Shown: positions 28,573-49,400, numbered from the stretch's first letter. The stretch: 64,000 nucleotides of DNA from Candidatus Thiomargarita nelsonii (GCA_000785145.2 JSZA02000037.1:1992-65991); one strand, 5' to 3'. Numbers and translations: made by a program. Notes: generated from the letters alone by a model not told the origin.

Positions 28573-28590
28573 AGCAAGTCAATTTTTTAA

Positions 28591-28641: not shown

Positions 28642-28654
28642 TGAGTTTTTTTTT

Positions 28655-28892
28655 GTAGGGTGGGTAGAGCGGAGCGAAACCCACCATTGTTATAAATTTA
28701 CGCCCGGATCTTCGTTTCAACTATTTGGTGGGTTGGGCGTCCCATAACGATGTTGCGCGGGCAACCATAAAGGATTGCCCCTACAATATTCAGATGGCAT
28801 GTAGGGGCAATCCCTTGTGGTTGCCCTTGGTATTTTATTTTTTGGGAGTTACCTAAGTTGGTGGATACGCTGGTGCTTAATCCACCCTACAT
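28655..28892. repeat. Nested cluster of GTAG-headed REPs (GTAGGGTGGGTA, GGGCAACC/GTAGGGGCAA pair, GGTGGAT)
   Basis: Direct reading; elements of three families are interleaved. Confidence 0.8.
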
Positions 28893-28948
28893 AGCTTTGG
28901 ACTCCAACAACTTTGGAGATGTCAAGTCAAAAAAAAAACTTGAACATC

Positions 28949-28990
28949 GAGTCTATAGAAATCCTATTTTTTAAAAAAATAGGATTTCTT
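28949..28990 (-). terminator. Same hairpin family downstream of the 29008-29538 lipoprotein gene
   Basis: AGAAATCCTATTTTTT / AAAAAATAGGATTTCT; the T-tail is weak. Confidence 0.4.
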
Positions 28991-29007
28991 TGAAAGTTGA
29001 AAAATAA

Positions 29008-30224: not shown

Positions 30225-30280
30225 AGAAACTCCTCTATTTGAATAAAAAAATAAAATATAAAAAATATAAAAAATATAAA

Positions 30281-30312
30281 AATCCTATTTCTTTAAGAAA
30301 TAGGATTTTTCG
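30281..30312 (-). terminator. Same hairpin family with T-runs on both strands; first terminator-like structure downstream of gspD and the array
   Basis: AAAAATCCTATTTCTTTAAGAAATAGGATTTTT. Confidence 0.55.
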
Positions 30313-30945
30313 TCCAAAATAAATTTTGGACTCCAAATTGTTGTTTCGGGAATGGAGCTCCGCGGATTTCCCGCAACGAAGTAAGCGAAGCTAAACCATT
30401 TAAAATAAAATAAAATCTAAAAGTCCAAAATAAATTTTGGACTCCAAATTGTTGTTTCGGGAATGGAGCTCCGCGGATTTCCCGCAACGAAGTAAGCGAA
30501 GCTAAACCATTTAAAATAAAATAAAATCTAAAAGTCCAAAATAAATTTTGGACTCCAAACAACGAAGTAAGCGAAGCTAAACCATTTAAAATAAAATAAA
30601 ATCTAAAAGTCCAAAATAAATTTTGGACTCCAAATTGTTGTTTCGGGAATGGAGCTCCGCGGATTTCCCGAAACCATTTAAAATAAAATAAAATCTAAAA
30701 GTCCAAAATAAATTTTGGACTCCAAATTGTTGTTTCGGGAATGGAGCTCCGCGGATTTCCCGCAACGAAGTAAGCGAAGCTAAACCATTTAAAATAAAAT
30801 AAAATCTAAAAGTCCAAAATAAATTTTGGACTCCAAATTGTTGTTTCGGGAATGGAGCTCCGCGGATTTCCCGCAACGAAGTAAGCGAAGCTAAACCATT
30901 TAAAATAAAATAAAATCTAAAAGTCCAAAATAAATTTTGGACTCC
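30312..30945. repeat. Tandem composite hairpin array: 6 units (111, 111, 75, 92, 111, 111 bp) plus a terminal hairpin
   Basis: Each unit is GTCCAAAATAAATTTTGGACTCC + TTTCGGGAATGGAGCTCCGCGGATTTCCCGCAAC + GAAGTAAGCGAAGCTAAACC + an AT-rich linker. Unit 3 lacks the CGGGAA hairpin, and unit 4 lacks the GAAGTAAGCG module. Confidence 0.95.
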
Positions 30946-30992
30946 AAAGTAATTAAATCATACTTTTTAAAGTGATGCGAGTGTTTTTTGAA

Positions 30993-33188
30993 TCAGTGAC
31001 TGGGTAGCTCTCCCCACTCACCTACCAAAACTTGTTGTTCATTTAATAATTGTGTTACCAACTTTAAGCGTTTTTTGAACTGGATCACCAATGGTCGATT
31101 ATCCGCCTCGGGGTTGACAATTTGGGGGACGATGATAAGTGCCAGTTCTGTGCGATCTCGTTTTTTGTCAGTTGACGAAAACAGCATTCTGCCGATGAAT
31201 GGTATATCTTTAAGTAGTGGTATACCTTGTTGATCGTCGCGTTCAATCGTTTCAATTAAACCCCCTATGATTATCGTGCTACCATCACGTACCACAACGG
31301 ACGTTTCTATTTTACGAGTAATAAACGATTGTAGCTGTTGCGTTGTTTTCGGTTCTCCAAGTTGTGACAATTCTTGAAATATTTTCAGGTTAATAATCCC
31401 ATCGTCATTGATGCGGGGTGTCACCTTGACCGTGATACCTGTATCTTTATATTGTACATCGTTAGACAATATTTGATTATTTGTTGAAGAGGTATTGACT
31501 CCACTCAGAAAGGGTTCACTAGAACCGATATTAATTGAAGCTTCTTCGTTATTGCGTACCAAAAGAGAGGGGCGCGACAAAATACTCACCTCATTATTTG
31601 AGGCCACCATATTTAACACCGCATTTAAACCACCTGAGAGATAATTGAGTGTCAAGCCGGTAAAACCGGCAAGCGAAGCTGTGTTATTATTAGTATCGCT
31701 TGAAGAAGTTGAAGAAGCCGCAAAGTTAGCATCAGGCACACTAAAATTCGAGCCGATGCTACCGTGAGTTCCCCTCAAAAGGGCTTGCCAATCAATACCA
31801 AATTGACTAGCCTCCGTCAGTTTCACTTCGGCAAGCACCACATTGATCATCACTTCTTTAGGCACTTGATCAAGTGTATAAATGGTTTCTAATAATTGCC
31901 GATAATCACGCGCACTGGCACGTACCAATAAACTGTTGGTACTCTCATCCGCGACAATAGTGACTTTTAAATCGGCTGAAACCGTTTTGCTCCCGTTCGG
32001 TGTCGGGGATGACGGTGGTTTTTTATCTTTTTTATTTTTAGCCGTTGGAAAAGCCTTTTGTTGTGTTTTCTGGCGTTTTTGTTTCTCTTCAGCGGCTTTG
32101 TCGAGTTTAAAAACACTTGACAAGGTTGATGCCAATTTAGAGGCTTCCAGATTTTTGACTTTATAAATAAACACCTGCTCGCCGCTTTCATCACTTCTCT
32201 CATCAAGAATCTCAACCCAAGTTGCGACTTCATTAAAACCACTATTGGGCGGTGTCACCACTAAAATCGCATTGATACGCTCTAAGGCAATCACTTGGTA
32301 AGTCGGCGGCGTCTTGTTGTAGATGGCTTTGAGTATCTTATCTAACTCGGCTTGTACCTCCGTTGCTTTGGAATTGATCAATCTAAATAAACGCATACCA
32401 CGATGCAAAAAAGGATCCGCATCAATGATGTGAAGCAATTTATTGACACGTTTTAAGTATTGTGGTGTTGTGATAATGCCAATTATATTGAGCGTTGGCA
32501 AAGTAATAATACGCCCTTTCGGCTGTATCAACGGATTAATCACCGTTTGAGCGGCTTGGGCGGTGATATAGCGTAGCGGCGTAATTTGTAGGACTTCTGG
32601 TGATGTACTACTGGTTAAAGTTTGAGGCGTTATCCCGATAGTGCCTGGCAATTTTCGGTCAACTTTTTTTAGATAATAAACCCCCCTTCTTTTTTCCATG
32701 CTGACACCCGCATCATTTAACAGCATTTGTAATAAAGGCCATAAATCCTTTTTTGTTAAAGGTTTATCCGATGCTGTGCGTATAGTCACTTTACTATTAA
32801 TCGTGGGATCGATCACCACAGAAAGATTTAAAGCATCAGCAATGATGTCAATGATTTGCCGTAATGGCACTTGTTCAAAATCTAATTCAATCGGGTCATT
32901 ATTGGACAAATGACCCATATCCAGTGCCCGATCTGTCACTGTCGTTACCGTTGGCAACCGCCCAGTTTTATTGACCTTTTTTAAGGGGTTAACTTGAGCA
33001 GGTGGTGGCGGCGCAGCAATTGCCGGCTCAACGGGGGCTTGTTTAACCGTCGGGCGCAGTTTTTGTAATTCACGCTTGGCTAATTGTTGGGCACTGATTG
33101 GGGGTTTTTTGCGTTTAGGGGGTGTATTACAAGCCACTAGCATACTGCTGCCTAATAACACCACAATTATTTGTTTTAATAAAAACAT
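30993..33188 (-). CDS. gspD: Secretin, GspD family (type II secretion-like)
   Basis: N0-like VPLRQIIDIIADALNLSVVIDPTINSKVTIRT; secretin C-domain ...IPLLKDIPFIGRMLFSSTDKKRDRTELALIIVPQIV; lipobox-like LVAC; internal K/P-rich insert. Confidence 0.8.
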   Translation of the reverse strand: MFLLKQIIVVLLGSSMLVACNTPPKRKKPPISAQQLAKRELQKLRPTVKQAPVEPAIAAPPPPAQVNPLKKVNKTGRLPTVTTVTDRALDMGHLSNNDPIELDFEQVPLRQIIDIIADALNLSVVIDPTINSKVTIRTASDKPLTKKDLWPLLQMLLNDAGVSMEKRRGVYYLKKVDRKLPGTIGITPQTLTSSTSPEVLQITPLRYITAQAAQTVINPLIQPKGRIITLPTLNIIGIITTPQYLKRVNKLLHIIDADPFLHRGMRLFRLINSKATEVQAELDKILKAIYNKTPPTYQVIALERINAILVVTPPNSGFNEVATWVEILDERSDESGEQVFIYKVKNLEASKLASTLSSVFKLDKAAEEKQKRQKTQQKAFPTAKNKKDKKPPSSPTPNGSKTVSADLKVTIVADESTNSLLVRASARDYRQLLETIYTLDQVPKEVMINVVLAEVKLTEASQFGIDWQALLRGTHGSIGSNFSVPDANFAASSTSSSDTNNNTASLAGFTGLTLNYLSGGLNAVLNMVASNNEVSILSRPSLLVRNNEEASINIGSSEPFLSGVNTSSTNNQILSNDVQYKDTGITVKVTPRINDDGIINLKIFQELSQLGEPKTTQQLQSFITRKIETSVVVRDGSTIIIGGLIETIERDDQQGIPLLKDIPFIGRMLFSSTDKKRDRTELALIIVPQIVNPEADNRPLVIQFKKRLKLVTQLLNEQQVLVGEWGELPSH

Positions 33189-33198
33189 AGATAAGTTA

Positions 33199-34401
33199 TC
33201 AGAAATTCATGTCATTTATACTGAAAATAGCCGATAACATAGTAATGACTATCGCACCGACTACCACGCCTAAAACTAAAATCAACATGGGCTCTAAAAA
33301 AGCCACTAGCCGTGATGTTTGTTCTTTGACATAGCCATCAAAGGTTTCGGCGAGTTGATTTAAAATAGGTGCTGTGCGCCCAGCTTCTTCTCCCACTATC
33401 ATTAATTGTGCTAATAGCACCGGAAATTTTCCATCATTAACTAAGGCTTTTCCTAAACTTGTTCCACCGCGCACAGCCTCTTCAATTTTAACAAGACTAT
33501 TGACAAGACTTTGGTTTTCCATAACGCCTTTTGCAATATTCAGGCCTTTTAATAAAGGGATGCCCGCCCCCAGTAAGGCGCCCAAGGTTCGACAAAAACG
33601 CGACGTTTCTGATCGCAAAATTAATTGTCCAAACAGGGGCGTCGATAGCATGAACTCATCGCGTTGTAAACGTCGCTCTGCTGTGGCGTCCAATTCTCTC
33701 CAACCATACCACAGCACAAAAGGCACACCGACTAAAGTCCAGCCGTAACTCCTCAGCCAATCGCTTAAACCTAATAAAAAAGCGGCAGAAGGTGGAATAT
33801 TTGAGCCCATATCCTCAAATAATGTAGCAAAGGATGGCACAACAAACACCATTAATAATAGCACACTTAAAAAGCCGACAACGCCGAGGATGATAGGATA
33901 AATCATTGAAGATAGAATAGTACGTTTAGCCTCTTCGGCGGCTGTTAGAAAATCGGCTAACTTCGGTAATAATTGATCTAAAATGCCGCCTTCTTCGCCC
34001 GCATGTACCATATTAACATACATGTGTGAAAAAATATCGGGGCGTGTCCGTAGGGCATCAGCTAAACTTTTGCCCTCTTTCACGTCGCGGCGCAAATCTT
34101 CAACTAATTGTTGTACAATTTGTTTTTCAGTGATGCCTTCAAGTAGTCCCAAAGCGCGATCTAAAGGTACATGCGCCTCAATTAAGGTACACAGTCCATT
34201 GGTAAAATCAATCACATCACGATTTTTAATGGACGGTTGGAATAATTGGCTACTTTCAGCTTGTTGCTCCACTTTGAGTGGTATCAGTTGCTGATTTTGT
34301 AATGTGATAACAACTTCCTGCTCGCTTTCGGCGCTCAGTTGTCCATTTTTAAGGTTGCCCTCAATATCACAAGCTTGATAAGTGTATTGATGGATTGCCA
34401 A
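33199..34401 (-). CDS. gspF: Type II secretion system F-family (GspF/PilC) inner-membrane platform protein
   Basis: 400 aa with a duplicated T2SSF domain and 3 TM helices. TTG start with AGGAGA RBS 8 nt upstream. Confidence 0.85.
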   Translation of the reverse strand: MAIHQYTYQACDIEGNLKNGQLSAESEQEVVITLQNQQLIPLKVEQQAESSQLFQPSIKNRDVIDFTNGLCTLIEAHVPLDRALGLLEGITEKQIVQQLVEDLRRDVKEGKSLADALRTRPDIFSHMYVNMVHAGEEGGILDQLLPKLADFLTAAEEAKRTILSSMIYPIILGVVGFLSVLLLMVFVVPSFATLFEDMGSNIPPSAAFLLGLSDWLRSYGWTLVGVPFVLWYGWRELDATAERRLQRDEFMLSTPLFGQLILRSETSRFCRTLGALLGAGIPLLKGLNIAKGVMENQSLVNSLVKIEEAVRGGTSLGKALVNDGKFPVLLAQLMIVGEEAGRTAPILNQLAETFDGYVKEQTSRLVAFLEPMLILVLGVVVGAIVITMLSAIFSINDMNF

Positions 34402-34432
34402 ATGATTTTATCTCCTTAGATTAAAAAGCACT

Positions 34433-34561
34433 GTAACTACTCAGCCTCTCGCTCCCACGCTCTGCGTGGGAGTGTATGTTAGCACCGCTCTGCGGTGCGG
34501 GACGCGGAGCGTCCCAGTATGCATTCCCACGCAGAGCGTGGGAACGAGGGTAGCTGAGTAG
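34433..34561. mobile_element. 129-bp multi-hairpin element flanked by the 12-bp direct repeat TTAAAAAGCACT
   Basis: Direct repeats at 34421-34432 and 34562-34573. Imperfect termini TAACTACTCAGC / GCTGAGTAGTTA. Internal hairpins TCCCACGC..GCGTGGGA (x2) and GGGACGCGGAGCGTCCC. Confidence 0.75.
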
Positions 34562-35116
34562 TTAAAAAGCACTTAGAAAAAAGCTTTCCGGAAATTTTTC
34601 TGTAATCATCATAGTCGCCTGACGATTGGTAAATACACAATAGGTACGAAATAGCAGATTTATATTTGGCTCAATGCGAAAATAATGCGCTAATTTTTCA
34701 GGCGCTGGCTCTTTTCCTGAGTCCACAATTTCTTTAAATGACTCGATTCTGTGTTCAAGCCAAAGTTTACCAATTGGGGTTTTGGTTTTAAGCAATTCAT
34801 TTCTAAAATCTTCATCGAGTCTCTCAATAACGACAATTGATTCGGCATAAATATAATTTTTACGACTAATGCGCCCCCTGAGTAAAATTTCTCTATCAAT
34901 AACCTCAGTTCCTTTTTTTAGGTGCATAACAGGTATATCCTGTGCGATAGATTTTAAGGTTTCACTTAATTTAATAAGCTGAATTTGCTCCGAAAAATAG
35001 GATTCTAACATGTCGGTGACTGATCCATCAGTTGTCAATAAAATCCTTTGAAATGTACTCAGGGCTGATGGATCGATATGGCTGCGATTTAGGCTTTGCT
35101 GTAGATCATTCCTCAT
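34562..35116 (-). CDS. Chorismate lyase (UbiC)/DUF98-fold protein
   Basis: RILLTTDGSVTDMLESYF motif; 184 aa. Confidence 0.6.
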   Translation of the reverse strand: MRNDLQQSLNRSHIDPSALSTFQRILLTTDGSVTDMLESYFSEQIQLIKLSETLKSIAQDIPVMHLKKGTEVIDREILLRGRISRKNYIYAESIVVIERLDEDFRNELLKTKTPIGKLWLEHRIESFKEIVDSGKEPAPEKLAHYFRIEPNINLLFRTYCVFTNRQATMMITEKFPESFFLSAF

Positions 35117-35784
35117 AATTATATTTTATCAGTATTTGTCCTTACGCTGCCGCTTTGGACTCCAAAAATTTGATGTATCGATATTGCGCTATCAACTGGG
35201 CATAAGGATGCTCCATTTTTTCAGGCGGAGGGCTGAGTACCTAAGCATCATATATATTAGACTTGTCCCTAATTAAACAAGAAATGCCATTTTTTCAAAA
35301 AATGGCATTTCTAAAAGTTTAAAAAGGTATTTTCCTTGGCATAATGGCGTTGTGTCGTACCCTACAATATCTCCCAACGGCATTGTTTTTTTTAAATGCA
35401 AACTGTGTCGTTTTGTTTTTCGAGCCAGTCTATATAGAGACTTTCAACGAATTTGGGCAAGCTTTAATCAAAACGCAATGGCTCATCCGTTGACTCCCCA
35501 AATCCGTTGTACTATAAGGATAAATCAAAACCGATTTAAAAATTGTAGGGTGGGTAACGTCTTTTTGTTACCCACCAGCCCACGACGACACAACAACCAA
35601 GGAAAACACCGTATATAAATTAAGATTTAAAAAAGGATAAGTCAAAACCGATTTAAAAATATATAGAGACTATCTTTGAGCAGCGTATCCACATTAATTT
35701 TAATCCGTTGACTCCCCATACGAAGTAACGGAACTTCGTTGCGTCAATCCCAAAAAAAAAACCTTGAATCACTGATTTTACTGA

Positions 35785-36261
35785 TTACACGGATAACACA
35801 AACCCATCAAAAAAACCACAATAGGTACGAAATAGCAAATTTATATTTGGTTCAATGCGAAAATAATGCGCTAATTTTTCAGGTGCTGGCTCTTTTCCTG
35901 AGTCCACAATTTCTTTAAATGACTCGATTCTGTGTTCAAGCCAAAGTTTACCAATTGGGGTTTTGGTTTTAAGCAATTCATTTCTAAAATCTTCATCGAG
36001 CCTGTCGATAACGACAATTGATTCGGCATAAATATAATTTTTACGACTAATGCGCCCCCTGAGTAAAATTTCTCTATCAATAACCTCAGTTCCTTTTTTT
36101 AGGTGCATAACAGGTATATCCTGTGGAATTTGCTCCGAAAAATAGGATTCTAACATATCGGTGACTGTTCCATCAGTTGTCAACAAAATCCTTTGAAAAG
36201 TACTCAGGGCTGATGGATCGATATGGCTGCGATTTAGGCTTTGTTGTAGATCATTCCTCAT
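35785..36261 (-). pseudogene. Truncated duplicate of the UbiC/DUF98-like gene
   Basis: Near-identical to 34562-35116, but with a ~26-aa internal deletion. The last ~25 codons are replaced (…TYCGFFDGFVLSV*). Confidence 0.65.
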
Positions 36262-36497
36262 GATTATATTTTATCAGTATTTGTCCTTACGCTGCCGCTT
36301 TGGACTCCAAAAATTTGATGTATCGATATTGCGCTATCAACTGGGCATAAGGATGCTCCATTTTTTCAGGCGGAGCCCAGAGTGCTGAGCACCTAAGCGA
36401 ATATATCATATATATCAGAATTTTCGTTGTTTCGGGAATTTCGCTGCGCGGATTTCCCGATACGAAGTCCTCACCGCCATAGAGTTGAAATTAAAAC

Positions 36498-36562: not shown

Positions 36563-37000
36563 ATGCCAAACCCAACAAAAACAAAGAGGATTCTCCTCAT
36601 ATTAACCAGCCTACTCGCATTAGGCACAGCACTACCCAGTGCAGCCAACCCCGCGATAGACTGGCTCATCACAACCGCCCAAACCAATGGCGCCTACACC
36701 ACCGAAAACGACATCGCTACCCCCTTCACAGCCACCGCAGAAACTCTACAAACCCAAAACTTTCCCAGCACAAAAAGGCTCTCCCAAACACTCATACTCC
36801 ACGCCCTCGCTGGACAAGCACTTGAGCCTATCACCAGCCAACTCATCACACGACTTAATCTCGATGGCGGCATTGGCGATCTCAGCGACTACGACAGCAC
36901 CATCATAGACACCGCCTGGGCACTCAACGCCCCAATCAATGCCATCGCCGTTAAGGGCAACCATAAAGGATTGCCCCTACAAAAATGGCATATCACGTAG
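36563..37000 (+). CDS. N-terminal fragment of the giant secreted protein (signal peptide + prenyltransferase/terpene-cyclase-like repeats), terminated by a stop inside an inserted element
   Basis: MPNPTKTKRILLILTSLLALGTALPSAANP signal; LNLDGGIGDLSDYDSTIIDTAWALNA. The reading frame enters the element at 36937 and stops at 36998-37000. Confidence 0.75.
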   Translation: MPNPTKTKRILLILTSLLALGTALPSAANPAIDWLITTAQTNGAYTTENDIATPFTATAETLQTQNFPSTKRLSQTLILHALAGQALEPITSQLITRLNLDGGIGDLSDYDSTIIDTAWALNAPINAIAVKGNHKGLPLQKWHIT

Positions 37001-37041
37001 GGGCAACACCCTAGTGGTTGCCCTTAACGGCGATGGCATTG
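36937..37041. mobile_element. 105-bp REPIN/MITE-like palindromic element inserted in the giant gene, flanked by AT/AT
   Basis: 26-nt perfect terminal inverted repeats CAATGCCATCGCCGTTAAGGGCAACC / GGTTGCCCTTAACGGCGATGGCATTG, enclosing GTAGGGGCAA-type REPs. Deleting the element plus one AT (107 bp) fuses the two ORFs in frame. Confidence 0.85.
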
Positions 37042-40000
37042 ATCCTACCCAGGCTCCCAAATCCTGACCAACTCTCAAACAGCCTTGACGCACTACAAAC
37101 CGCCCAACTAACCAATGGCAGCTGGGACAACGACGTTTACACCACCGCCCTCGCCCTACGCGCCTTTCAAATCACCCACAACCCCGACTTAGCCCAAATC
37201 ACCGGCACCATTATTGACGGACAAACCGGCTCCCCCCTCACAAACATCACCATACAACTCGGCACCGACACCCAAATCACCAACTCACTCGGAGAATTTA
37301 ACTTTTTAAGTCTCGTAGCCGGCAACTACACCCTACAAATTAGCACCAACCTAACCAGCGAAATCCAACTCAAACCAGGACAAAACCTCAGCTTAGGTCA
37401 AATTCGCCTATTTACCGAAACCACAAACATCCAAGGCACCATCACAGATGCCAGCACCCAAGCACCACTCCCCGGCGTCGCCATACAAATCACCGGACAC
37501 AATGACACCATACACACAGACGAACAAGGTGCCTACATCATCACCCAACTCTCCCCAGGAGATGTCATATTACAAGCCACATTCGACGGCTACCTCACCG
37601 CCTCAACCACCCTCACCCTCAGCGCTGGCACCACCCACATCGTCTCACTCACCCTCTCACCTGATCAAGCGATATTAGAAGGCATAGTCAGCGATAGTAA
37701 TGGCGTTTTAGCCGGTGCCAATATATATATAGATGGCACACAACTCACCCAAACCGACACCAATGGCAGTTACCGCATAGAAGGCTTAGCCAGCGGCACA
37801 CACAATATTAGCGTTGAACTCGACGGATACGACAGCCTAACAGGTACAGTCACAACCCCAAGCAACACAACAATCACCCTAACATCCCAACTCTATCCCA
37901 CTGGCACCACCCCACCCGACAATGCCAGCGTCACCGGCAAAATCATTGACAAAGCCACCCAACTACCCCTTGCCTCCGTCACCATCACAAATGGAACTCA
38001 AACCACCACCACTGACACTACCGGACAATTCAACTTAACCAACCTAGCGGCAGGTGAAAACATCCTTTCATTGAGCTTAACTGGATACCTTGATAAAACG
38101 ATCACAGTCAACCTATTCCCCTTTAGCCAACTCGCACTGGGAGAAATCTTACTAAAACCTGAAGGATATAAAACCCCAATTGGTATTAAAGGCATAGTGA
38201 TGGATGCCAGCACCAACCAAACACTGGCTAACGTTAATATAGAAGCCCAATTCGATCAAACTCCACAACAACTAACAACTGCCCCAGATGGCTCCTTTGA
38301 AATAACAACAGAAGTTGACGAACTCAGTGCTCAACTCACCTTCACCACTGAAGGATATACCCCCTATACCCTAGACATACAATTAATAGCCGACGAAATT
38401 CTTGACATAGGGCAAATACGTTTACGTCCAGAAGAAGTCACTGTCTTATTAGCCGACTTAGTAATAGAGCAACTCGACAAAACGGCGACTCAGACTGAAC
38501 CACAATCACTAATAGTTTCAGGCACCATAACCGCTCAAATCAAAAATATTGGCACAGAAAACACCCTCAGCAATACCAACCTACTTGCCTTTTATGACAT
38601 TGACTTAAATAGCAAATATGAAGAAACCACCGACTTAACGCTTGGACAAGCCACACTCGAAAATCCTCTCGCCGTAGAAGAAACCGCCACAGTTGACATC
38701 ACCTTAGCTGGAGAATTGCCCTTTAGAGACGCGCCAATTCATGTATGGCTGGATAATACTCAAACCGTTGTGGAGAGTGACGAAGAAAATAATATTGGAA
38801 CAACCACCAGCCTTTGTGAAATAGTGCCTGATATTGGGACTTTTGAGCCGGTGTTGAAGTGGGAATGGGCAGGCGCGAGTGTTACAATGACACCGATGGT
38901 AGCACCGCTAATTGATACCAATGGCGACTTACAGATAAACCAACTTGATGAACCTGCTATTGTTTTCATTGGAGATGGTTTTCCAGATCGTAGTCCGGGT
39001 ATATTAATTGCTGTCAGTGGTGTAGACGGAAGAGAATTATGGCGTTTAAACAGCCATCAAGTACATGCCCCTTCCCAAATTGCCATAGCAGATATTGATG
39101 GTGACAAAATACCCGAAATCATTGCTAATCTCTATCGTGGAGGCACAATGGCTGTCAACAATGATGGTACCGTGAAATGGACAAGTCCCTACCCCAACTA
39201 CTCGGTTGGCTTAAATTATGGTGGTTATTCGGTTGCCGATTTAGATGGTGATGGTCAAGCAGAAATTGTGATTGATAAAACCGTGTTAAATACCGATGGT
39301 AGTTTAAGATGGAAAGGTAGCAGCCGTTACTTTGGTTATCAATTGAGTGTGATTGCTGATATTAATCTTGATGGCAAACCTGAAATTATTGTTGGTCCCT
39401 CAGCCTACGATGCCGATGGTAACTTGCTTTGGGAAAATCTTTCACTCAATGATGGAACCGTCGCTATTGCGAATTTTAATGAAGACCCTTTTCCAGAAAT
39501 TATTTTAGTGGGAGAGCGCAGTGTTCACATGCTTAACCATCAAGGTGAGATTATTTGGGGTCCTGTTATCGTCGCACCTCGTGCTGGTGGCGCACCAACA
39601 ATAGCGGATGCTGATGGTGATGGTATTTTAGATATTGGTGTGGCAGCTGCATCTAAATACTATGTCATCAATTCAGACGGTAGCATTAAATGGTCATATC
39701 CCGTTGTGGATGGTTCAGAACAAACCGGCTCAACCTTCTTTGACTTTGACGGTAATGGTGAAGTTGAGGTAGTTTATTTTGATCAAAATAAGCTACGTGT
39801 TTTTAAAGGAAAAACCGGTGAAGTCGTATTTGAAATCGACAATCGTTCGGTGACAGCAAAAGAATATTCTGTTATAGCAGATGTGGATAACGATAATCAT
39901 GCTGATCTGGTTGTTCCCTCCTATAATAGCTCGCATGGTATTCGCGTCTTCCAAGACATCAACAACAGTTGGGTTCGTACACGAAACTTATGGAACCAAT

Positions 40001-42621
40001 ACGCCTACCACATCACCAACATCAATGACGATCTGAGCGTTCCCCGCGTAGAACAAAACAGTTGGGAAGTCCACAACACCTATCGCCTCAACACCATACC
40101 AGGTGAATCTGTTACTGGTACCCCCGATATCACAATAGGCAAACTACGCCTCATAGACAACGGCATAGCTCAACCCCTCACCCTAAGCGTCCGCATAGGC
40201 AACGCCGGTGCCCAAACAAACCAAGCTAGCATCCCACTCAGCTTTTATAGCAATGCAACCCAACTCGGCACCCTCACACTACCTCCCATAGCCCCCGGCA
40301 CCTATCAAGACATCCAACTAGAAGGCATCACACTTGCCGAACTCAATCAAGAGATTTCTGCCATCGTTGAAGCCATCGAAGAATGTGATGAAAACAACAA
40401 CAGCGTCTCCACCACCCTCAGCACCACCACCCTTCACGGCGAGATCACCCTCACCACAGATGCCCAAGAATATGGCCCCAACACACCCGTCCTCATACAA
40501 TACAGCATCACCAACACCGGCGCACTATCCGCTGACTTCCAGCTTGAACTACAAATTGAACAAGCCAATGGTGACACAGTACAAAGCCTAGACACGCCCA
40601 CCTTAAACACCTTAGCCAGTGGCGAAACTATAACACTTGACACCACTTGGAACACTGCCCAAACTTTGACGGGTGCCTACCAAGCACACTTGCTTCTTCG
40701 TGCGGGCGACTTAATAGCAGAAACCACACAAAGCTTCGACATCATCGCCGAAACCCTATTAAATTTACGCACCACTTTAGACAAAACCACCTATCACACC
40801 ACCGATCAAATTCAGATCGACAACCTCATACGCAACCTCAGCGTCAACACACTCCTTTCTGGCGCCCAACTACAAATCACCATACATGATGAAAGCCAAC
40901 AAAGCGTCTTTACCCAACAACTCGCATTAGACGATCTCGCACCCCAGGGGCAACAACAAAAAACCAATTACTATACATTCCAAAATGCTAGCGAAGGCAC
41001 CTACACCGTACAAAGCCAGCTATTGGACAACCAAAGAAAACCTTTGGTTAGCGACACCGCCACCTATCAAATTCAAGAAAACCTCAAATTCAGCTTGAAT
41101 GGCAGCGTCGTAGCACAAACACCAACACTTTATCAAGGAGAACCCCAACACTGTACTGATACCATTACAAACAATGGAAATACACAACTCACCGCCCAAC
41201 CGATCCGTCAACTTCTAATCGCACTCGCCGATGGGCAAGAAATCAACACGACTGAAGTCACACTCGATATCGACGCAGGCACTAACCAAAGCTTAGAACG
41301 GACGATTACTACCGCCACACTTCAAGGCGGAGACTACGCCTGTGTTCTTTCAACGGAAATTGAAGGTCAATGGGAAAATTTAGGCTATGCCGTTTTTCAA
41401 GTCCAAGAACAAGCGATTCAAATTGAATCGAGCCTGACACTTTCCGAAGGTGGACGCTTACTCATCCTACTAGACGAAGGCGACGAAGACCCACATGGCC
41501 CACAAACCGCGCCCCGTCTCACGGAACAACGTGCTTTTCTTGAAAGCTTATTAGAAGGCTGGACTTATACCATTGTGACTGATGACGATGCTTTCACTAG
41601 CGAACTCAGAAGTGGTGGCTATACTGTTTATGCCCTTTTTGCTGAACAAGAAAAACTGGAGACACAAGTACAAAAAGAATTGAGAGAAGCCATTTATCGG
41701 GGAGAAGGCATAGTGGTTGCTGGCGCCCACGATGATCGTCACCAGCACCTCAATGACGCATTAGGTATTAAATTCAAAGGCAAACTACCCAACGTTCAAA
41801 ACCTAAGCCTCCACGATTCACCGTTACATGAGGCGTTAGATGCCAGCTTGGCATTTGAAGAAAAACCGATACGTGTAGAAATACTGAATGAAAACACATT
41901 GTTAGTGGGCTCATTCGGAGAAGAAGTGGCCGCGACTTATTATGAATATGGTCATGGTCAAAGTGTCTATATTAGCTTTGACTTACTGGCTCAGGCAACC
42001 GCCACTTCCCCTGACAGCTTATTTGCGACATTACTGACCGCTGCCTTGGGTGCCGTTCATTCTGAAACCTTCGAGCCCATTATCGGGAGCGTGATTCCGA
42101 TTAATCTGACGCTGACCAATCAAGGGATTGCAACACCTGGCCAGGCACTGTTCGATTTACCAGAAGGCAGTATCATTTTAGGGCCGGACAATGTTGAACT
42201 GCCCCTGGTTTGGTTATTTGAACTTGACTTGGAACAAAGTGCCCAATTTGAATTTTGGCTGCGCCTGCCTTGGGAAGCGAGTATTGTGCCAATTGACGTG
42301 TTGATTCAGACCGGCATTGATCCGAATTTTGAAGATTATGAAATGCTGGCTCTTGAAATTGAAGTCCAAGCACCTCCTGGTTTGTTGGCGGCAATAGATT
42401 GGATTTTGGATAATGAAGAACCGTCTTATACCAAAGCCCTTAATTCACTAGAAAAGGCAGTAGAATGGCTATCGGCTGAAAAAGAAGATAAGGCACTTCA
42501 AGAATTGCTCAAAGCCTCGGATGAATTGCTCAAAAGCGATGCAGACGATGCCCCGATGATACGGGTGATGATTGGTCATGCGATACGGAATGTGTCGGCA
42601 GTGATATTTTTGATGCAATAA
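37018..42621 (+). CDS. Main body of the giant secreted protein: prenyltransferase-like repeat, ~5 CarboxypepD_reg-like domains, CARDB-like domains, 7-blade FG-GAP/VCBS propeller, further Ig-like domains, C-terminal alpha/beta + helical tail
   Basis: TNGSWDNDVYTTALALRAF; repeated G.I.D..T..PL..V.I......T.TD..G.F....L..G; blades ADIDGDKIPEII, ADLDGDGQAEIV, ADINLDGKPEII, ADADGDGILDI, FDFDGNGEVEVV, ADVDNDNHADLV. The first 8 codons of the track ORF are element-derived. Confidence 0.8.
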   Translation: MPLTAMALILPRLPNPDQLSNSLDALQTAQLTNGSWDNDVYTTALALRAFQITHNPDLAQITGTIIDGQTGSPLTNITIQLGTDTQITNSLGEFNFLSLVAGNYTLQISTNLTSEIQLKPGQNLSLGQIRLFTETTNIQGTITDASTQAPLPGVAIQITGHNDTIHTDEQGAYIITQLSPGDVILQATFDGYLTASTTLTLSAGTTHIVSLTLSPDQAILEGIVSDSNGVLAGANIYIDGTQLTQTDTNGSYRIEGLASGTHNISVELDGYDSLTGTVTTPSNTTITLTSQLYPTGTTPPDNASVTGKIIDKATQLPLASVTITNGTQTTTTDTTGQFNLTNLAAGENILSLSLTGYLDKTITVNLFPFSQLALGEILLKPEGYKTPIGIKGIVMDASTNQTLANVNIEAQFDQTPQQLTTAPDGSFEITTEVDELSAQLTFTTEGYTPYTLDIQLIADEILDIGQIRLRPEEVTVLLADLVIEQLDKTATQTEPQSLIVSGTITAQIKNIGTENTLSNTNLLAFYDIDLNSKYEETTDLTLGQATLENPLAVEETATVDITLAGELPFRDAPIHVWLDNTQTVVESDEENNIGTTTSLCEIVPDIGTFEPVLKWEWAGASVTMTPMVAPLIDTNGDLQINQLDEPAIVFIGDGFPDRSPGILIAVSGVDGRELWRLNSHQVHAPSQIAIADIDGDKIPEIIANLYRGGTMAVNNDGTVKWTSPYPNYSVGLNYGGYSVADLDGDGQAEIVIDKTVLNTDGSLRWKGSSRYFGYQLSVIADINLDGKPEIIVGPSAYDADGNLLWENLSLNDGTVAIANFNEDPFPEIILVGERSVHMLNHQGEIIWGPVIVAPRAGGAPTIADADGDGILDIGVAAASKYYVINSDGSIKWSYPVVDGSEQTGSTFFDFDGNGEVEVVYFDQNKLRVFKGKTGEVVFEIDNRSVTAKEYSVIADVDNDNHADLVVPSYNSSHGIRVFQDINNSWVRTRNLWNQYAYHITNINDDLSVPRVEQNSWEVHNTYRLNTIPGESVTGTPDITIGKLRLIDNGIAQPLTLSVRIGNAGAQTNQASIPLSFYSNATQLGTLTLPPIAPGTYQDIQLEGITLAELNQEISAIVEAIEECDENNNSVSTTLSTTTLHGEITLTTDAQEYGPNTPVLIQYSITNTGALSADFQLELQIEQANGDTVQSLDTPTLNTLASGETITLDTTWNTAQTLTGAYQAHLLLRAGDLIAETTQSFDIIAETLLNLRTTLDKTTYHTTDQIQIDNLIRNLSVNTLLSGAQLQITIHDESQQSVFTQQLALDDLAPQGQQQKTNYYTFQNASEGTYTVQSQLLDNQRKPLVSDTATYQIQENLKFSLNGSVVAQTPTLYQGEPQHCTDTITNNGNTQLTAQPIRQLLIALADGQEINTTEVTLDIDAGTNQSLERTITTATLQGGDYACVLSTEIEGQWENLGYAVFQVQEQAIQIESSLTLSEGGRLLILLDEGDEDPHGPQTAPRLTEQRAFLESLLEGWTYTIVTDDDAFTSELRSGGYTVYALFAEQEKLETQVQKELREAIYRGEGIVVAGAHDDRHQHLNDALGIKFKGKLPNVQNLSLHDSPLHEALDASLAFEEKPIRVEILNENTLLVGSFGEEVAATYYEYGHGQSVYISFDLLAQATATSPDSLFATLLTAALGAVHSETFEPIIGSVIPINLTLTNQGIATPGQALFDLPEGSIILGPDNVELPLVWLFELDLEQSAQFEFWLRLPWEASIVPIDVLIQTGIDPNFEDYEMLALEIEVQAPPGLLAAIDWILDNEEPSYTKALNSLEKAVEWLSAEKEDKALQELLKASDELLKSDADDAPMIRVMIGHAIRNVSAVIFLMQ

Positions 42622-42652
42622 ATAGATGTGTTGTTGGACGGGGTAGAGAGCC

Positions 42653-42748
42653 CAATGCCATTAAGGGCAAACCCGATAGGGTATGCCCCTACAACAGACG
42701 TAATTTCTCGTAGGGGCAATCCCTTGTGGTTGCCCTTGATGGCGTTGG
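42653..42748. repeat. GGGCAA/GTAGGGGCAA REPIN between the giant gene and P1
   Basis: CCAATGCCATTAAGGGCAAACC...GTAGGGGCAATCCCTTGTGGTTGCCCTTGATGGCGTTGG. Confidence 0.8.
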
Positions 42749-42816
42749 TAAAGAGCCTCGTCCAAAACGTTTTTTTTTATTTTTTTTTTATTTTTTTTGA
42801 CTTACTAGGAGAACTC

Positions 42817-45813
42817 ATGAGAGAAAACTATTCACCCCTGATGCGACTCACGGCAATCGTGATACTCATCACCTTTACCATGCTCATACTGGAGCCCACA
42901 ATGGTAGCCGCACAAGTTTTGCATCAAGAATATCAAGAAGGCAAAGCACAAGCGGCGCGTGAAGAAGCTGCTAAACTGTCCAAAACCTTGGAAATTGTCG
43001 AAACGACATTATCACAATGGCAAGAGAATTTATCGGCAGATTCGCTGCAACGCCGTACTTTAAAGACAAGTACACAAACCGCGACACTCAAACAACAAGT
43101 CCTGACAATGGATGAACACGTCCAAGCTGACTTTGAAGCCATAGCCGAGCATATCAGCCATCTGCCCCCAGAAATTATGCAACGACATATTGAAGCTGTG
43201 GCGCGTTATCGCTCCGAAATGGACACTTTATTGAACAATCTCGATGAGATAGACGCGGCAACAGATAATGAACAACGCCGCACGAGTATTGATAAGGCTT
43301 TGAAACATCTCAAGCCATTACAAAATCAGGGCAAGCACGCGCCATTTGATCCAAACCAATTGCCATTTAATATTCCAAAAGGGGAAGTGCGTCCACCTAT
43401 CGAAGATGAAAAGGAGTTGAAAAGGCGTTTTCCAGCGAAACCGGTTAAAGTGGCAAGCACAACTCTTTTGCCTGAAATGCTGAAAGTGGCGCAAGCACCC
43501 GATTCAACTGATTTGGAGCCAACAGAGGACGTACAAATCACCCCCCCAATAGAGGCATTGGCTTTAGAATTAGAACATAATCCCGTTAAAATCTATAATT
43601 GGGTGCATGACAACATTCAATTCATACCGACTTATGGCTCAATCCAAGGGAGCCAAATGACTTTGGAAACTAAAAGTGGTAATGCCTTCGACACCGCCAG
43701 CTTACTAATCGCATTACTCCGTGCGTCGGGGATACATGCGCGTTATGCTTATGGCACCGTGCGAATTCCCATTAACCAAGCTATGAATTGGGTGGGAGGT
43801 GTCACTTCACCAGAAGCCGCGATGCAATTACTCGGTCAAGGCGGCATTCCGACGGCGGGTTTAGCGCAAGGTGGCGTGATTAAGTTCTTGAAATTGGAAC
43901 ACATTTGGGTAGAAGCCTGGGTGGATTTCTTTCCGAGCCGAGGGGCGAGACATAAAACAGGTGATAGTTGGGTGCCGATGGATGCCTCATTTAAGCAATA
44001 TGAATTTAGCGAAGGGATGGATATCCAAGGGAATGTGCCGTTTGATGCCGAAGGATTTGTCGATCAAATTGTCAATACCGCCCAAATTAATGAAGATGAT
44101 GGATGGGTTTCTGGCGTTGATCAAACTTTCATGGAAGCCACGCTACAAAACTACCAAACGCTTCTGTACGCCTATATTAACCAGACGAATCCAGATGCGA
44201 CGGTGGGAGAAGTGCTGGGCACACAAAATATTATTCCATCTAATCGCCCGAATTTAGCGGGGAGTTTACCTTATCCGGTGATGGCTAAAGCTGGGTTCTT
44301 TCAAGAAATCCCATCGAATTTGCGTAAAGAATTCCAATTTAATCTTTATGCCTCAGATATGGATAGGATGTTGGAAAATCCGGTTTTTAGTTTGAAACGG
44401 AGTTTACCAGATTTAGCGGGCAAACGTTTGACATTATCTTTTGAGCCCGCCTCTGAGACTGATCGCCAAGTGATTGAAAGCTATTTGCCCGAAGTGCCAG
44501 AAGGAGAGGAGTTGGATCCAAATGACTTACCCAGTTCCTTGCCCGGCTATTTGATTAATTTAAAGGCGCAATTTAAAATTGATGGCGAGATTGTTGCCGA
44601 AAGTAGTGGCTTTAGGATGGGGCAAGAATTGAGTAGTACGACAGGGATTTCTCGGTTGATAGGTGGCTGGGCTATGGCGACTAATAGGCCGATTGCTGGA
44701 GAGTTTTATGCTTTTGGGATTGATTTACAAGGGATCAGTGCCAAACAACTTGAGACTGTGAAAGATCGGATGGAAAGCGTTAAGTCTCAACTTGAGGCTC
44801 AACAGTTTGAGGGGCTGACTAAGGATGGTCTTATTGGTGATATGCTGTATGCCGGCGCGTTGAGCTACTTTGCAGCCAATGATATGAATTTGAAAATGCT
44901 CAATCGAGTGGGACAAGCCTTGGCTTATCGTCAGCCATCTTTTGGGACTTTTTCTACGAATCTGATACCTGTTTATAGTTTTGGCGTGCCGCGACAGGTG
45001 AAGATGAGTGGTATTATGGTGGATATGGATGCTGTTGCTCAGTCGTTGTGGGCTAAAAATAATGATGCCGAGATAAGTCGGACAGTGGGGCAACAAGTGG
45101 GGATGATGAGTTCTGCTTGGGAACATCGGATGCCAGAATTATTGTTTACTGATGATGAGCATCCGGGTGAGGCGGTGTCGGCAGTGAAGGCTCTCGCTAT
45201 AGCTTCTGCTGAAGGACAACGGATTTATACTCTGACTGCCGAGAATGTGGATGCGGTGTTGCCAGTGTTAAATATTGGTATTGAGGTGAAGGATGAGATT
45301 CGTGCGGCAGTGGCGGTTGGACAAGTGGCTACGGTTTCTCAGGATAATATATCTGTTGGTGGTTGGACGGGTGTGGGGTATATTATTGCTGATCCGGAAA
45401 CTGGGGCTGGGGCTTATCGGATTTCAGGAGGAAGTAATGGAGGATTGCTTATTATTTTAGGTGTGGCAAGCATGATTGGGATTGCCGGAATTCTTGCCGG
45501 AGCAGGAGTTTTATTTGGGGTATTATGGTTAGGCGTTGTTATTTATTTTGCGGCTCTATATCTGAGGCTGGCAGGGTTAAATTTTGATTGGAATGCCTTT
45601 TTGGCAATTGAAGACCTTTTAGGAGGAACAGTCGTTGCCTATATGATGTGGGCTGGTCTGGTTGCGTTTGGGGTTTCCTCATCTTTTATAGCAATGATAT
45701 ATTTCGGAATTATAACACTCATATTGTTTTACCAGTTTGTAATGTCACGTCTGTCTAAATGTCGAACCTCGTCTAAATATGCATGGTATCGCACATGGAG
45801 TATATATGCTTGA
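42817..45813 (+). CDS. P1: signal-anchored coiled-coil + Cys-less transglutaminase-like core protein with a glycine-rich multi-TM C-terminus
   Basis: AGGAGA RBS. Core motifs SGNAFDTASLLIALLRASGIHARYAYG ... EHIWVEAWV ... WVPMDAS. Junction motif GWTGVGYIIADPETGAGAYRISGGSNGG, followed by ~120 aa of hydrophobic sequence (GIAGILAGAGVLFG). The track start at 42628 is repeat-encoded. Confidence 0.8.
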   Translation: MRENYSPLMRLTAIVILITFTMLILEPTMVAAQVLHQEYQEGKAQAAREEAAKLSKTLEIVETTLSQWQENLSADSLQRRTLKTSTQTATLKQQVLTMDEHVQADFEAIAEHISHLPPEIMQRHIEAVARYRSEMDTLLNNLDEIDAATDNEQRRTSIDKALKHLKPLQNQGKHAPFDPNQLPFNIPKGEVRPPIEDEKELKRRFPAKPVKVASTTLLPEMLKVAQAPDSTDLEPTEDVQITPPIEALALELEHNPVKIYNWVHDNIQFIPTYGSIQGSQMTLETKSGNAFDTASLLIALLRASGIHARYAYGTVRIPINQAMNWVGGVTSPEAAMQLLGQGGIPTAGLAQGGVIKFLKLEHIWVEAWVDFFPSRGARHKTGDSWVPMDASFKQYEFSEGMDIQGNVPFDAEGFVDQIVNTAQINEDDGWVSGVDQTFMEATLQNYQTLLYAYINQTNPDATVGEVLGTQNIIPSNRPNLAGSLPYPVMAKAGFFQEIPSNLRKEFQFNLYASDMDRMLENPVFSLKRSLPDLAGKRLTLSFEPASETDRQVIESYLPEVPEGEELDPNDLPSSLPGYLINLKAQFKIDGEIVAESSGFRMGQELSSTTGISRLIGGWAMATNRPIAGEFYAFGIDLQGISAKQLETVKDRMESVKSQLEAQQFEGLTKDGLIGDMLYAGALSYFAANDMNLKMLNRVGQALAYRQPSFGTFSTNLIPVYSFGVPRQVKMSGIMVDMDAVAQSLWAKNNDAEISRTVGQQVGMMSSAWEHRMPELLFTDDEHPGEAVSAVKALAIASAEGQRIYTLTAENVDAVLPVLNIGIEVKDEIRAAVAVGQVATVSQDNISVGGWTGVGYIIADPETGAGAYRISGGSNGGLLIILGVASMIGIAGILAGAGVLFGVLWLGVVIYFAALYLRLAGLNFDWNAFLAIEDLLGGTVVAYMMWAGLVAFGVSSSFIAMIYFGIITLILFYQFVMSRLSKCRTSSKYAWYRTWSIYA

Positions 45814-46495: not shown

Positions 46496-49400
46496 ATGCA
46501 ACGGCATACTGAAGCGGTGGCGCGTTATCGCTCCGAAATGGACACATTATTAAACAATCTCGACGCGATAGATGCAGCAACAGATAATGAGCAACGCCGC
46601 AGGCATATTGATAAGGCTTTGAAACATCTCAAGCCATTACAAAATCAGGGCAAACACGCCCCCTTTGATCCAAACCAATTGCCATTTAATATTCCAAAAG
46701 GCGAGGTGCGTCCACCTATCGAAGATGAAAAGGAATTGAAAAGGCGTTTTCCAGCGAAACCGGTCAAAGTGGCAACCACAACTCTTTTGCCGGATATGCT
46801 AAAAGTGGCGCAAGCCCCCGATTCGACTGATTTAGAGCCAACAGAGGACGTACAAATCACCCCCCCAATAGAGGCATTGGCTTTAGAATTAGAACATAAT
46901 CCCGTTAAAATCTATAATTGGGTGCATGATAATATTCAGTTTATTCCGACTTATGGCTCAATCCAAGGCAGCCAAATGACTTTGGAGACAAAGAGCGGAA
47001 ATGCCTTTGATACAGCCAGCTTACTCATTGCATTGCTCCGTGCATCAGGGATACATGCCCGTTATGCTTATGGCACCGTGCGAATTCCCATTAACCAAGC
47101 CAAAAATTGGGTAGGCGGAGTGACATCACCAGAGGCAGCGATGCAATTATTCGGTCAAGGCGGCATTCCGACGGCGGGTTTAGCGCAAGGTGGCGTGATT
47201 AAGTTTTTGAAATTGGAACACATTTGGGTAGAAGCCTGGGTAGATTTCTTTCCGAGCCGAGGGGCGAGACATAAAACGGGTGATAGCTGGGTACCGATGG
47301 ATGCCTCTTTTAAGCAGTATGAATTTAGTGCCGGGATGGATATTCAAGGCAATGTGCCGTTTGATGCCGAAGGATTTGTCGATCAAATTGTCAATACTGC
47401 CCAAATTAATGAAGATGAAGGCTGGGTTTCTGATATTGACCTGCAAACTATTCGCACAGCCCTAAACAACTACCAAACACAATGGCAAACCGACCTTGAC
47501 AATCGTCATCCTGGCGCCACTTTAGCAGATATGCTGGATAAGCAAACAATTAAGCCAGCCAATCGTCCTAGCTTAGCAGCCGCTTTACCTTATGATTTGA
47601 TAGCAAAAGCTGATACTTGGACGACTCTTCCAGACCACTTACGTCACACGGTCACGCTGAAATTTTACAATAGCCCTTCGGCTCAACATCTGGATGACCC
47701 CTCATTAAACTATACACTCAGTTTGCCTGCCTTAAATACTCAACGGTTCGGTGTCACTTATGAACCAGCCACCGAAAAAGATGCCCAAACCTTAAACCAT
47801 TTTATAACGGCAGACACAAACACACTACCAGTTTATCTATTAAACCTCAAACCCGTTCTCAAACGAAACGAAGCCGTACTTTCTACTGGTTCTGTCATTG
47901 GAATGGGGCAAACTCAATACTATACCATTACCCTCAAAAATCCCCACCATGTCCATAGCGCCAAAGGCAGAGTGACCGCTGGCGATGAAATCGTTTTTGG
48001 AGTGAACAGCAATGAGATTCCTCTTTCTGTGGTGCAAAAACGTTTTAATAGCATCAACCCAAATAGTGCCGCCGAAAACTTACACCAAATGGCTTTACAT
48101 TTCTGGGCGGAGCATGATTTCCTAGACCGTCTAACCGCCCAAGCATATCAAGTACATAGATTGCGTATGCCATCTGTGGGACTCTTCTCGGCCCCCCTAT
48201 CAGTCTCCTATTCATTCGGTATTGCGCGTAATGGCATTTATAAAAATCGTCAGATAGACGTAAAACTTAATCTACAATCCGTCGTAGCTGAAACCGAATC
48301 AGCACTTTTTGGTTATATGTCTCAGAGTGGCATACAAGGTTCTTATTTGGAAGGCTCAGTGATTGAACAACTGTTTAAATATACACAAGGCCGAGGACTT
48401 TCAGCCACACAATTATTCATTGAAGCGACTGAGCAGAATATTCCCATCTATCTGGTCACTGAAGAAAACCTTGAAAGAGTTTTGCCCCAGCTCGCTGTGC
48501 ATCAGGAAGTCATAACAGACATCGTTAATGCCATTCATGCCGGACAACAGGTCATTGTGCCGCAACGAGAGATAATTCACGACAATTGGAAGGGAACCGG
48601 CTATATTATTCAAGACCCCCTCACGGGCGCAGGCGCTTATCTTATTGAAGGCGGACTGAATGGAGGCCTGCTGGAATCCTTATTTTGCGAATATTCTAAG
48701 TTGCCTTTGGCTCAACAAATTCTTATATTAGCAGCCGCAGTAATAATGGCTTACCTCGTTGCGATTGTCATGGTACATGCTGTGATGTGGATTAGGGCCG
48801 GAATGATAGTAAGGGCTGAAATAAGCCGCATTATGGCCCTGCCCATGACGACGGTGACGGCTACTGTGCCTGAAATGGTGACAGCTTCCACGACGGCAGA
48901 CGGACGGGGAGCGGATGATTGTTATCTCGAACCGAGCTTAAAAATTTATAAGGTCAGTTTTGAGAATGATATCACTATTTATAAAGATAAAATTGGCGAG
49001 GCTATTGAGATTAAGGATCCGGTTTGGATAGATTTGAATATGGATGGTCAAATTCAGATACCATTGGATAAAAATGAACGTGTTGGTTATGCGGGTGGTT
49101 CTCTAATGAAAGTTAAAGCGGAGTTTTCGGTATCACCACCTTATGTGCATGGTCCTATTGAGAATGACATCCGAATTGGGGTGATTGGTCCAGGTTTCAA
49201 TTTAAGCGGATTAGGGGAATACCATCCTGAACATGAGTTGGTGTCAGTGACTTTGCCCTTAAAAACTTGGGAAAAGCAGACTCAATTTTTTGGGCCATCG
49301 AATCCTATGAGTCTTTCTTGGAGCTATTCGTTTGATGGAGTGACATACCATTCAGCGGGTGTGAGTGAGCATATAGTTTATGTGACGCTTGCTGAGAAGT

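Follow-up and report, generated by a model that had tools for sequence, protein, structure and literature searches.

A small palindromic element interrupts a large gene in the 64,000-nt stretch of Candidatus Thiomargarita nelsonii DNA analyzed here (GCA_000785145.2 JSZA02000037.1:1992-65991), which is referred to below as the window; all coordinates are counted from its first letter. The gene begins at 36563 and encodes a predicted secreted protein. The element, as placed by reading the sequence between 36400 and 37400 and by a repeat finder, is non-coding, occupies 105 bp (36937-37041) and has an AT dinucleotide on each side.

The element and the split gene

The terminal inverted repeats of the element, 26 nt long (CAATGCCATCGCCGTTAAGGGCAACC), are perfect, and this sequence occurs at two sites in the window, both belonging to the element, with none expected. 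Complementarity of the arms reaches 29 nt when flanking bases are included (36935-36963 with 37015-37043), and an inner stem of 10 bp pairs TTGCCCCTAC with GTAGGGGCAA. As single-stranded DNA the hairpin has a predicted energy of -48.7 kcal/mol (z = -13.3), a value equalled by none of 200 shuffled sequences, and the corresponding RNA hairpin, of -79.8 kcal/mol, spans both possible starts of the downstream reading frame (37018 and 37033). With its short length, perfect arms of 26-29 nt and no open reading frame (ORF) of its own, the element has the form of a MITE (miniature inverted-repeat transposable element). Its interior holds two units resembling repetitive extragenic palindromic (REP) sequences, each of the form GTAGGGGCAA-N8/9-GGTTGCCC, in which a short hairpin comes directly after GTAG. 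The GTAGGGGCAA motif, with at most one mismatch, has 13 occurrences in the window, where about 3 would be expected, and REP unit 1 of the element is identical to the copies at 55460-55485 and 55500-55525. No family was recognized when the whole window was scanned against Rfam. The parts of the element and the other features discussed are listed in Table 1.

The upstream ORF stops at a TAG within the element, and the body ORF (1867 aa) uses a different frame and lacks its own signal peptide; the product of the gene caller, P0001 (1862 aa), matches the start at ATG 37033. Removal of 107 bp in silico, in any of three equivalent registers, gives a single ORF of 1983 aa that reads ...ALNAPILPRLPNPDQ..., which removal of 105 bp does not. 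In Pfam searches the restored protein was found to have five CarboxypepD_reg-type domains, FG-GAP repeats and CARDB domains. An earlier note on this DNA had described the palindrome with its 26-nt repeats and internal REP pair, the AT on either side, the separation of a signal-peptide ORF from the body, a protein of the FG-GAP/CarboxypepD_reg kind and an in-frame product of the 107-bp excision, and in all of these our analysis agrees with it.

Table 1. Features of the interrupted gene, its element and related copies. Positions are those of the window or, for copies named by locus (L), of the fetched locus.
Feature	Position	Strand	Remarks
105-bp MITE	36937-37041	.	18-nt IS-like terminus, REP unit, 16-nt spacer, REP unit, 18-nt terminus
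Left terminal inverted repeat CAATGCCATCGCCGTTAA	36937-36954	+	First 9 nt and TTAAG common to the IS4-family IS consensus and the hupL MITE
REP unit 1	36955-36980	-	Reverse complement of GTAGGGGCAATCCTTTATGGTTGCCC; GTAG, then short hairpin
Spacer AAAAATGGCATATCAC	36981-36996	.	16 nt; loop of the long hairpin; also in sibling L008 6216-6320
REP unit 2 GTAGGGGCAACACCCTAGTGGTTGCCC	36997-37023	+	Encloses TAG 36998-37000, stop of the upstream ORF
Right terminal inverted repeat	37024-37041	-	Holds ATG 37033, in frame with the gene body
Upstream gene fragment, 145 aa	36563-37000	+	Signal-peptide-like N-terminus and start of alpha/alpha-repeat domain; final 21 codons inside the MITE
Gene body	37018-42621	+	1867 aa from TTG 37018; 1862 aa from ATG 37033; CarboxypepD_reg x5, FG-GAP, CARDB
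Putative deletion junction	36932-37043	.	Paralog similarity stops at 36932; homolog similarity resumes at ILPRL, encoded from 37042
Second in-frame loss, 69 bp / 23 codons (LYQLNETSQPTLPPALEFIQT)	36749-36755	+	At the short direct repeat CAAACCC; alignment blocks overlap there
Paralog, internally deleted	54594-55441	+	Keeps the promoter and the N-terminal 183 codons; the final ~71 codons follow in a different frame
Sibling REP-doublet MITE, 95 bp	42653-42747	.	Starts 31 nt past the gene's stop codon; 10-bp direct repeat GTAGAGAGCC / GTAAAGAGCC, 9/10 matching
Window MITE, 138 bp, CAATGCCATTAAGTTAAG termini	13322-13459	.	Perfect 11-bp target duplication CAAGCCAGATA
Sibling copy L016	4430-4534		Flanking direct repeat ACTCCAAATGC
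Sibling copy L008	6216-6320		Flanking direct repeat AAGGTACGCCT
Sibling copy L004	5157-5279		Flanking direct repeat, 10/11 matching
Copy L009	1575-1707		Flanking direct repeat GGTTGCAAACC; different cargo
Sibling copy L027	18537-18639		Flanking direct repeat ACCCTACAATC
Single REP units	52436, 55460, 55500		Extracted motif sites
Head-to-head REP doublets	~28793, 36989, 42701, 51409		Extracted motif sites

A family of mobile elements

When the genome collection was scanned for 23 nt of the element's arm, exact matches came from 17 loci in Candidatus Thiomargarita nelsonii THI036, a Thiotrichaceae metagenome-assembled genome (MAG) and a Pseudomonadota MAG. Several of these are complete elements of 103-123 bp with the same architecture; one sibling (L008 6215-6321) is 93.6% identical to the gene's copy, and identity to copies in independent assemblies is 92-94%. 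The element was aligned with seven siblings from three other genomes, each with 14-nt flanks. In this alignment of eight copies the similarity is bounded exactly by CAATGCC...GGCATTG and the flanks are unrelated. Because the similarity begins and ends so sharply, we regard the sequence between these ends as a discrete mobile unit, and dispersal in multiple copies with unrelated flanks is likewise a feature of MITEs.

Members of the family end in CAATGCCAT...ATGGCATTG, and all such ends in the fetched loci and in the window were paired in a survey of target duplications. Flanking duplications of 10-11 bp were recognized for at least eight sibling copies, including the published MITE of hupL described below. 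The gene's copy is different, its 11-nt flanks (AACGCCCCAAT and ATCCTACCCAG) having only AT in common. Other members of the CAATGCCAT-ended superfamily, carrying different cargo, are present in the window at 13322-13459, 14012-14159 and 63426-63489; the 64-bp unit at 63426 is similar to the right end of the IS4-family insertion sequence (IS) consensus of Flood et al.

MITEs of this lineage were reported by Flood et al. 2016 (PMC4853749) from Ca. T. nelsonii Bud S10, where one of them interrupts hupL. According to the supplementary sequence, the duplication ATCCAAACAGT stands on both sides of an element that begins with CAATGCCATTAAGTTAAG, contains GGGCAACCACAAGGGATTGCCCCTAC and ends with CTTAACTTAATGGCATTG (PMC4853749). 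BLASTN matches to it were found on 260 of 439 contigs, no parent IS was found, and 1120 of 7125 predicted genes in the lineage were putatively disrupted (PMC4853749). The published MITE has the terminal nonamer of our element and an 11-bp duplication, and our element's REP lies inside it. What the two have in common is the first 9 nt, CAATGCCAT, together with TTAAG, the 11-bp duplication (in siblings of our element), the REP module GGGCAACCAyAArGGATTGCCCCTAC, the host lineage, and the interruption of a protein-coding gene that has additional lesions. They differ in that the present subfamily is 105 bp long against about 200 bp, carries nothing besides the REP doublet and has the arm CAATGCCATCGCCGTTAAGGGC instead of CAATGCCATTAAGTTAAG, and in that the gene's copy lacks a target duplication and is placed at a putative deletion junction. 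Judged by its ends and cargo, the element appears to be a new member of the already described Thiomargarita CAATGCCAT (hupL-MITE) superfamily, and the CAATGCCAT...ATGGCATTG superfamily is abundant in Thiomargarita-like Beggiatoaceae. The earlier note had treated the element as REP-like and its position in a coding sequence as unusual on that account, a view that does not carry over to a mobile unit behaving as a MITE with IS4-type ends, for which the hupL case has been published (PMC4853749).

The REP doublet might nevertheless be the mobile unit itself, as in the REP doublets forming hairpins (REPINs) and bacterial interspersed mosaic elements (BIMEs) of Pseudomonas and E. coli. These would be moved as single-stranded DNA by a REP-associated tyrosine transposase (RAYT, an IS200/IS605-like Y1 transposase) that reads GTAG plus hairpin and leaves no target duplication. 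The element's units consist of GTAG followed by a short imperfect palindrome, and two of them stand in inverted orientation across a 16-nt spacer within one long hairpin that is highly repeated; doublets without the outer CAATGCCAT arms occur at ~28793 and 51409; the gene's copy has no long duplication; and IS200-like genes are reported to be present in Ca. T. nelsonii (PMC4853749). However, the siblings L016, L008, L004 and L027 are bounded by the outer CAATGCCAT arms with 11-bp duplications outside them, which is the signature of a DDE and not of a Y1 transposase. None of the 28 window ORFs scanned matched Y1_Tnp or could be taken for a RAYT, the element's REP is also carried as cargo inside the hupL MITE, and the gene's copy is intragenic, unlike REPINs, which are extragenic. 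We consider mobilization of the doublet by a RAYT unlikely.

A candidate parent element

In the 2016 paper no RepeatModeler consensus was found to resemble the hupL MITE, and an origin from PD-(D/E)XK (YhgA-like) elements was suggested (PMC4853749). Two consensus sequences in its supplement, rnd-3_family-325 and family-176, have the 18-nt CAATGCCATTAAGTTAAG termini of the hupL MITE (PMC4853749). The rnd-3_family-325 consensus starts with TCAATGCCATTAAGTTAAGG and finishes with CTTAACTTAATGGCATTGA, so that CAATGCCAT and TTAAG are common to our family, the hupL MITE and this possible parent. Its ORF, which we stitched over frameshifts in the consensus, scored 137.5 bits against NCBIfam NF033592, "IS4 family transposase" (cutoff 115), and also matched PF01609. 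In the ISfinder classifications, the IS4 and IS231 subgroups typically duplicate 10-13 bp of their target. From these termini, the transposase match and the length of the duplications we infer that the superfamily, including the 105-bp subfamily, would be mobilized in trans by an IS4-family DDE transposase. An IS4-family element is then a candidate parent of the hupL-type MITEs, in place of the PD-(D/E)XK (YhgA-like) origin. The family resembles the IS4-family ISs and their MITEs (IS231 and MIC231 of Bacillus cereus) in termini that start with CA, in duplications within the range of 10-13 bp and in a candidate parent consensus that scores as IS4-family. It departs from them in that no transposase lies in the window and the arms of the subfamily match the IS ends partially; mobilization in trans is putative.

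A deletion at the site of the element

The N-terminal region of the restored protein was aligned with the in-window paralog and eight full-length homologs (34-56% identity). Between ...VIDTAWALEA and AILPRL... all eight homologs have about 97 aligned positions, of which the restored protein has none, and the gap of ~97 columns falls at the element to within one or two residues per side. At the DNA level identity between the main gene and the paralog is 91-95% as far as 36932 / 55098, 4 nt short of the element, and similarity resumes only at 42388 / 55208. The paralog, after ALNA (past 55098), encodes LAITDTPIENLYPAINYLLQHQNGGWADNGNETS, which aligns with the segment that is present in all homologs and gone from the main gene; it keeps about 110 nt of it (55099-55207), corresponding to the first ~38 residues. 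Elsewhere in the window, whether as an inversion or as a reciprocal product, the missing segment of ~97 positions was found only in this paralog remnant, in part. The paralog is itself an internally deleted pseudogene, its last ~71 codons being 97% identical to 42388-42621.

Since the homologs have ~97 positions at this place and the paralog ceases to be similar 4 nt short of it, the element appears to mark the junction of a deletion of about 100 codons, in an N-terminal alpha/alpha-repeat domain that was already eroding. A further 23 codons (LYQLNETSQPTLPPALEFIQT), kept by the paralog and by all homologs, are gone from the main gene. The restored protein has no match to PF13243 or PF00432 (prenyltransferase/squalene-cyclase-like), and several homologs have such a match at their N-terminus. 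A deletion at the site would also account for the target duplication that is missing in the gene's copy.

The simplest alternative is that the element landed at an AT, duplicated these 2 bp and interrupted an ancestral ORF of 1983 aa, in which case precise excision would restore a working gene and the element could act as a reversible switch. The uninterrupted ORF obtained by the 107-bp removal, the body ORF that is intact along 5.6 kb, and the perfect inverted repeats, which suggest a young copy, all agree with this. The siblings, however, duplicate 10-11 bp and not 2, so the AT pair does not pass for a target duplication; every homolog and the in-window paralog have sequence at the point where the restored ORF has none; and the N-terminal domain, as restored, has lost the match to its Pfam families. 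Precise excision by slippage, as known for Tn10 and Tn5, needs a repeat as substrate, and a repeat of 2 bp provides almost none. We judge a simple, reversible insertion quite unlikely. The in-frame result of the 107-bp removal is best read as a coincidence, with a chance expectation of 1 in 3. Because about 100 codons were lost at the junction, excision would yield an in-frame protein with a mutilated N-terminal domain, not the ancestral protein.

The earlier note had also held that the restored region equals the paralog at 55090-55170 to within one residue in length. That comparison was made between non-equivalent internal repeats of the domain, and the similarity actually ends at 36932 / 55098. 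Its conclusion that the gene is either inactivated or dependent on excision or re-initiation holds in its first part, the gene being inactivated as written; the claim that excision restores the gene is not supported, since the ~97 positions are also gone.

An allele free of the element was not encountered in the collections searched. No close relative of the restored ORF turned up in the protein search, where the best match was 56% identical when the window's own product was set aside; a scan of Joint Genome Institute (JGI) metagenomes for a close allele gave 47% at best, and neither P0001 nor the 145-aa fragment was on record as an exact product.

The history of the locus may thus be proposed as follows. 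The element would be a non-autonomous MITE with 18-nt ends like those of IS4-family ISs and a head-to-head pair of the genome's REP units as its cargo, moved in trans by a DDE transposase making 11-bp staggered cuts, as the sibling copies suggest. The junction most likely arose by a transposase-promoted adjacent deletion or by recombination between two nearby copies, either of which would leave intact ends, loss of one or both flanks and no 11-bp duplication in the gene's copy.

Several observations weigh against this interpretation. The right boundary of the deletion rests on homologs of only 34-56% identity, without a close orthologue showing the ancestral DNA. On the left flank the comparison with the paralog calls for either an extra loss of 18 nt or a 4-nt CAAT filler of obscure source, which leaves the exact history of the junction ambiguous. 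A recognizable duplication was seen in only ~8 of the ~21 end-pairs examined, so its lack in the gene's copy is not diagnostic by itself. Between the arm of the 105-bp subfamily and the IS ends, agreement is confined to the first 9 nt and TTAAG, and the 64-kb window and the fetched loci contain no transposase (tblastn for an IS4 transposase against the window and 27 loci gave no match). Finally, the 5.6-kb gene body is still an intact ORF, which implies that the lesion is recent or that some function or use persists.

Fate of the interrupted gene

As the gene now stands, the signal-peptide fragment would end at the TAG in the element and the body would be out of frame and without an export signal, with both of its start codons buried in the RNA hairpin. 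TTG 37018 and ATG 37033 both sit in the 3' arm of the hairpin. No promoter-like site able to drive the gene body was found within the element, and no Shine-Dalgarno-like or other obvious ribosome-binding site precedes either start. Given the stop in the element, the change of frame, the missing export signal and the buried starts, the most likely reading is that the gene is a recent pseudogene rather than a switch reversible by excision.

It could also be supposed that the split gene is still used, ribosomes that end at TAG 36998-37000 melting the 5' arm of the hairpin and re-initiating at the element's ATG 37033, which is in the frame of the body and 33 nt past the stop; the locus would then yield a small peptide that is secreted and a large protein that stays in the cytoplasm. 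The intact body ORF fits such a scheme. Against it stand the want of a Shine-Dalgarno-like sequence before 37018 or 37033, the truncated N-terminal domain, and a product that lacks a signal peptide yet carries FG-GAP, CARDB and CarboxypepD_reg domains, which are typical of extracytoplasmic proteins. Continued use by re-initiation is in our view very unlikely. An assembly artefact, with the palindrome added or misplaced by the assembler or by a whole-genome-amplification chimera, is extremely unlikely: assemblers classically go wrong at long perfect palindromes and multi-copy repeats, and a misjoin of two different copies would likewise leave unmatched flanks, but the element is complete and canonical at both ends and closely matches independently assembled copies.

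Two other kinds of small palindromic repeats were compared and rejected on the features examined. The Correia elements of Neisseria have inverted repeats of ~26 nt and land in or beside genes, but they duplicate TA and have unrelated arms. Rickettsia palindromic elements also occur inside ORFs; they stay in frame, with the host protein preserved, whereas the present element brings a stop codon (36998-37000) and shifts the frame between the ORFs that begin at 36563 and 37018.

Genomic context

The SecD protein of the window is 94-95% identical to proteins of the Thiomargarita lineage, including a partial SecD of Ca. T. nelsonii. The JGI contig L027 (98% identity in the T2SS-F protein; 95-96% at the nucleotide level) is syntenic with the window over 26550-35216 and not beyond. 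Within the window, 35817-36361 is a second copy of the segment 34561-35216, which holds an Rv2949c-like gene. The block from ~36.4 kb (36362 onward) is absent from the retrieved stretch of L027. This non-syntenic block contains the big gene, three transglutaminase-like paralogs, a Rep_3 initiator and the deleted second copy of the gene. The Rep_3-type plasmid replication initiator (52843-54264, minus strand; PF01051, 1.5e-36, and PF21205) is encoded in the interval that separates the two copies of the gene, which suggests that integrated plasmid-like DNA makes up the block or a part of it.

After the big gene and after its remnant, the stretches 42628-45813, 46496-50176 and 55551-59939 encode three large paralogs that have a transglutaminase-core domain. 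The first of them probably starts at ATG 42818, which follows a poly-T tract, and not at GTG 42628, from which translation would read through the MITE at 42653-42747. Downstream of the remnant come two tandem REP units (55460 and 55500) and then a transglutaminase-like paralog. At 23262-26336 there is a gene for a 1024-aa protein with tetratricopeptide repeats (TPR) and a CHAT (caspase-like) domain, and L027 has a Peptidase_C14 gene; both are in keeping with reports that Thiomargarita genomes are rich in metacaspases. TAACTGA, a heptamer noted in Beggiatoaceae genomes, is present 16 times in the window against ~7.7 expected (2 of 100 shuffles reach 16), with a tandem pair at 9464-9477.

Discussion

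The explanation that we favor combines a mobile MITE, a deletion junction at its site and a recent pseudogene, and taken jointly these are held with fairly good confidence. Gene disruption by the hupL-type MITE superfamily had already been published for this lineage (PMC4853749). The deletion-junction reading and the candidate IS4-family parent of the hupL-type MITEs go beyond that literature, and no new mechanism is revealed.

A more speculative extension, which we think doubtful, is that IS4-type MITEs act as engines of adjacent deletion. In the highly polyploid Thiomargarita cell the transposase might bring together ends on sister copies of the genome, and such deletions would possibly drive the massive pseudogenization of the lineage; a single cell might then hold surface-protein genes both as intact and as deleted or occupied alleles, a heteroplasmic on/off reservoir, and the parent of the hupL MITE would be of the IS4 family.

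More generally, the locus serves as a worked example of how a reading frame restored by in silico excision is weak evidence without a comparison with homologs. For Thiomargarita, it adds one more gene hit by the hupL-type MITE superfamily and indicates that such copies may sit on deletion junctions. It also provides a concrete candidate parent, an IS4-family transposase with 11-bp duplications, for a MITE family whose origin has been open.

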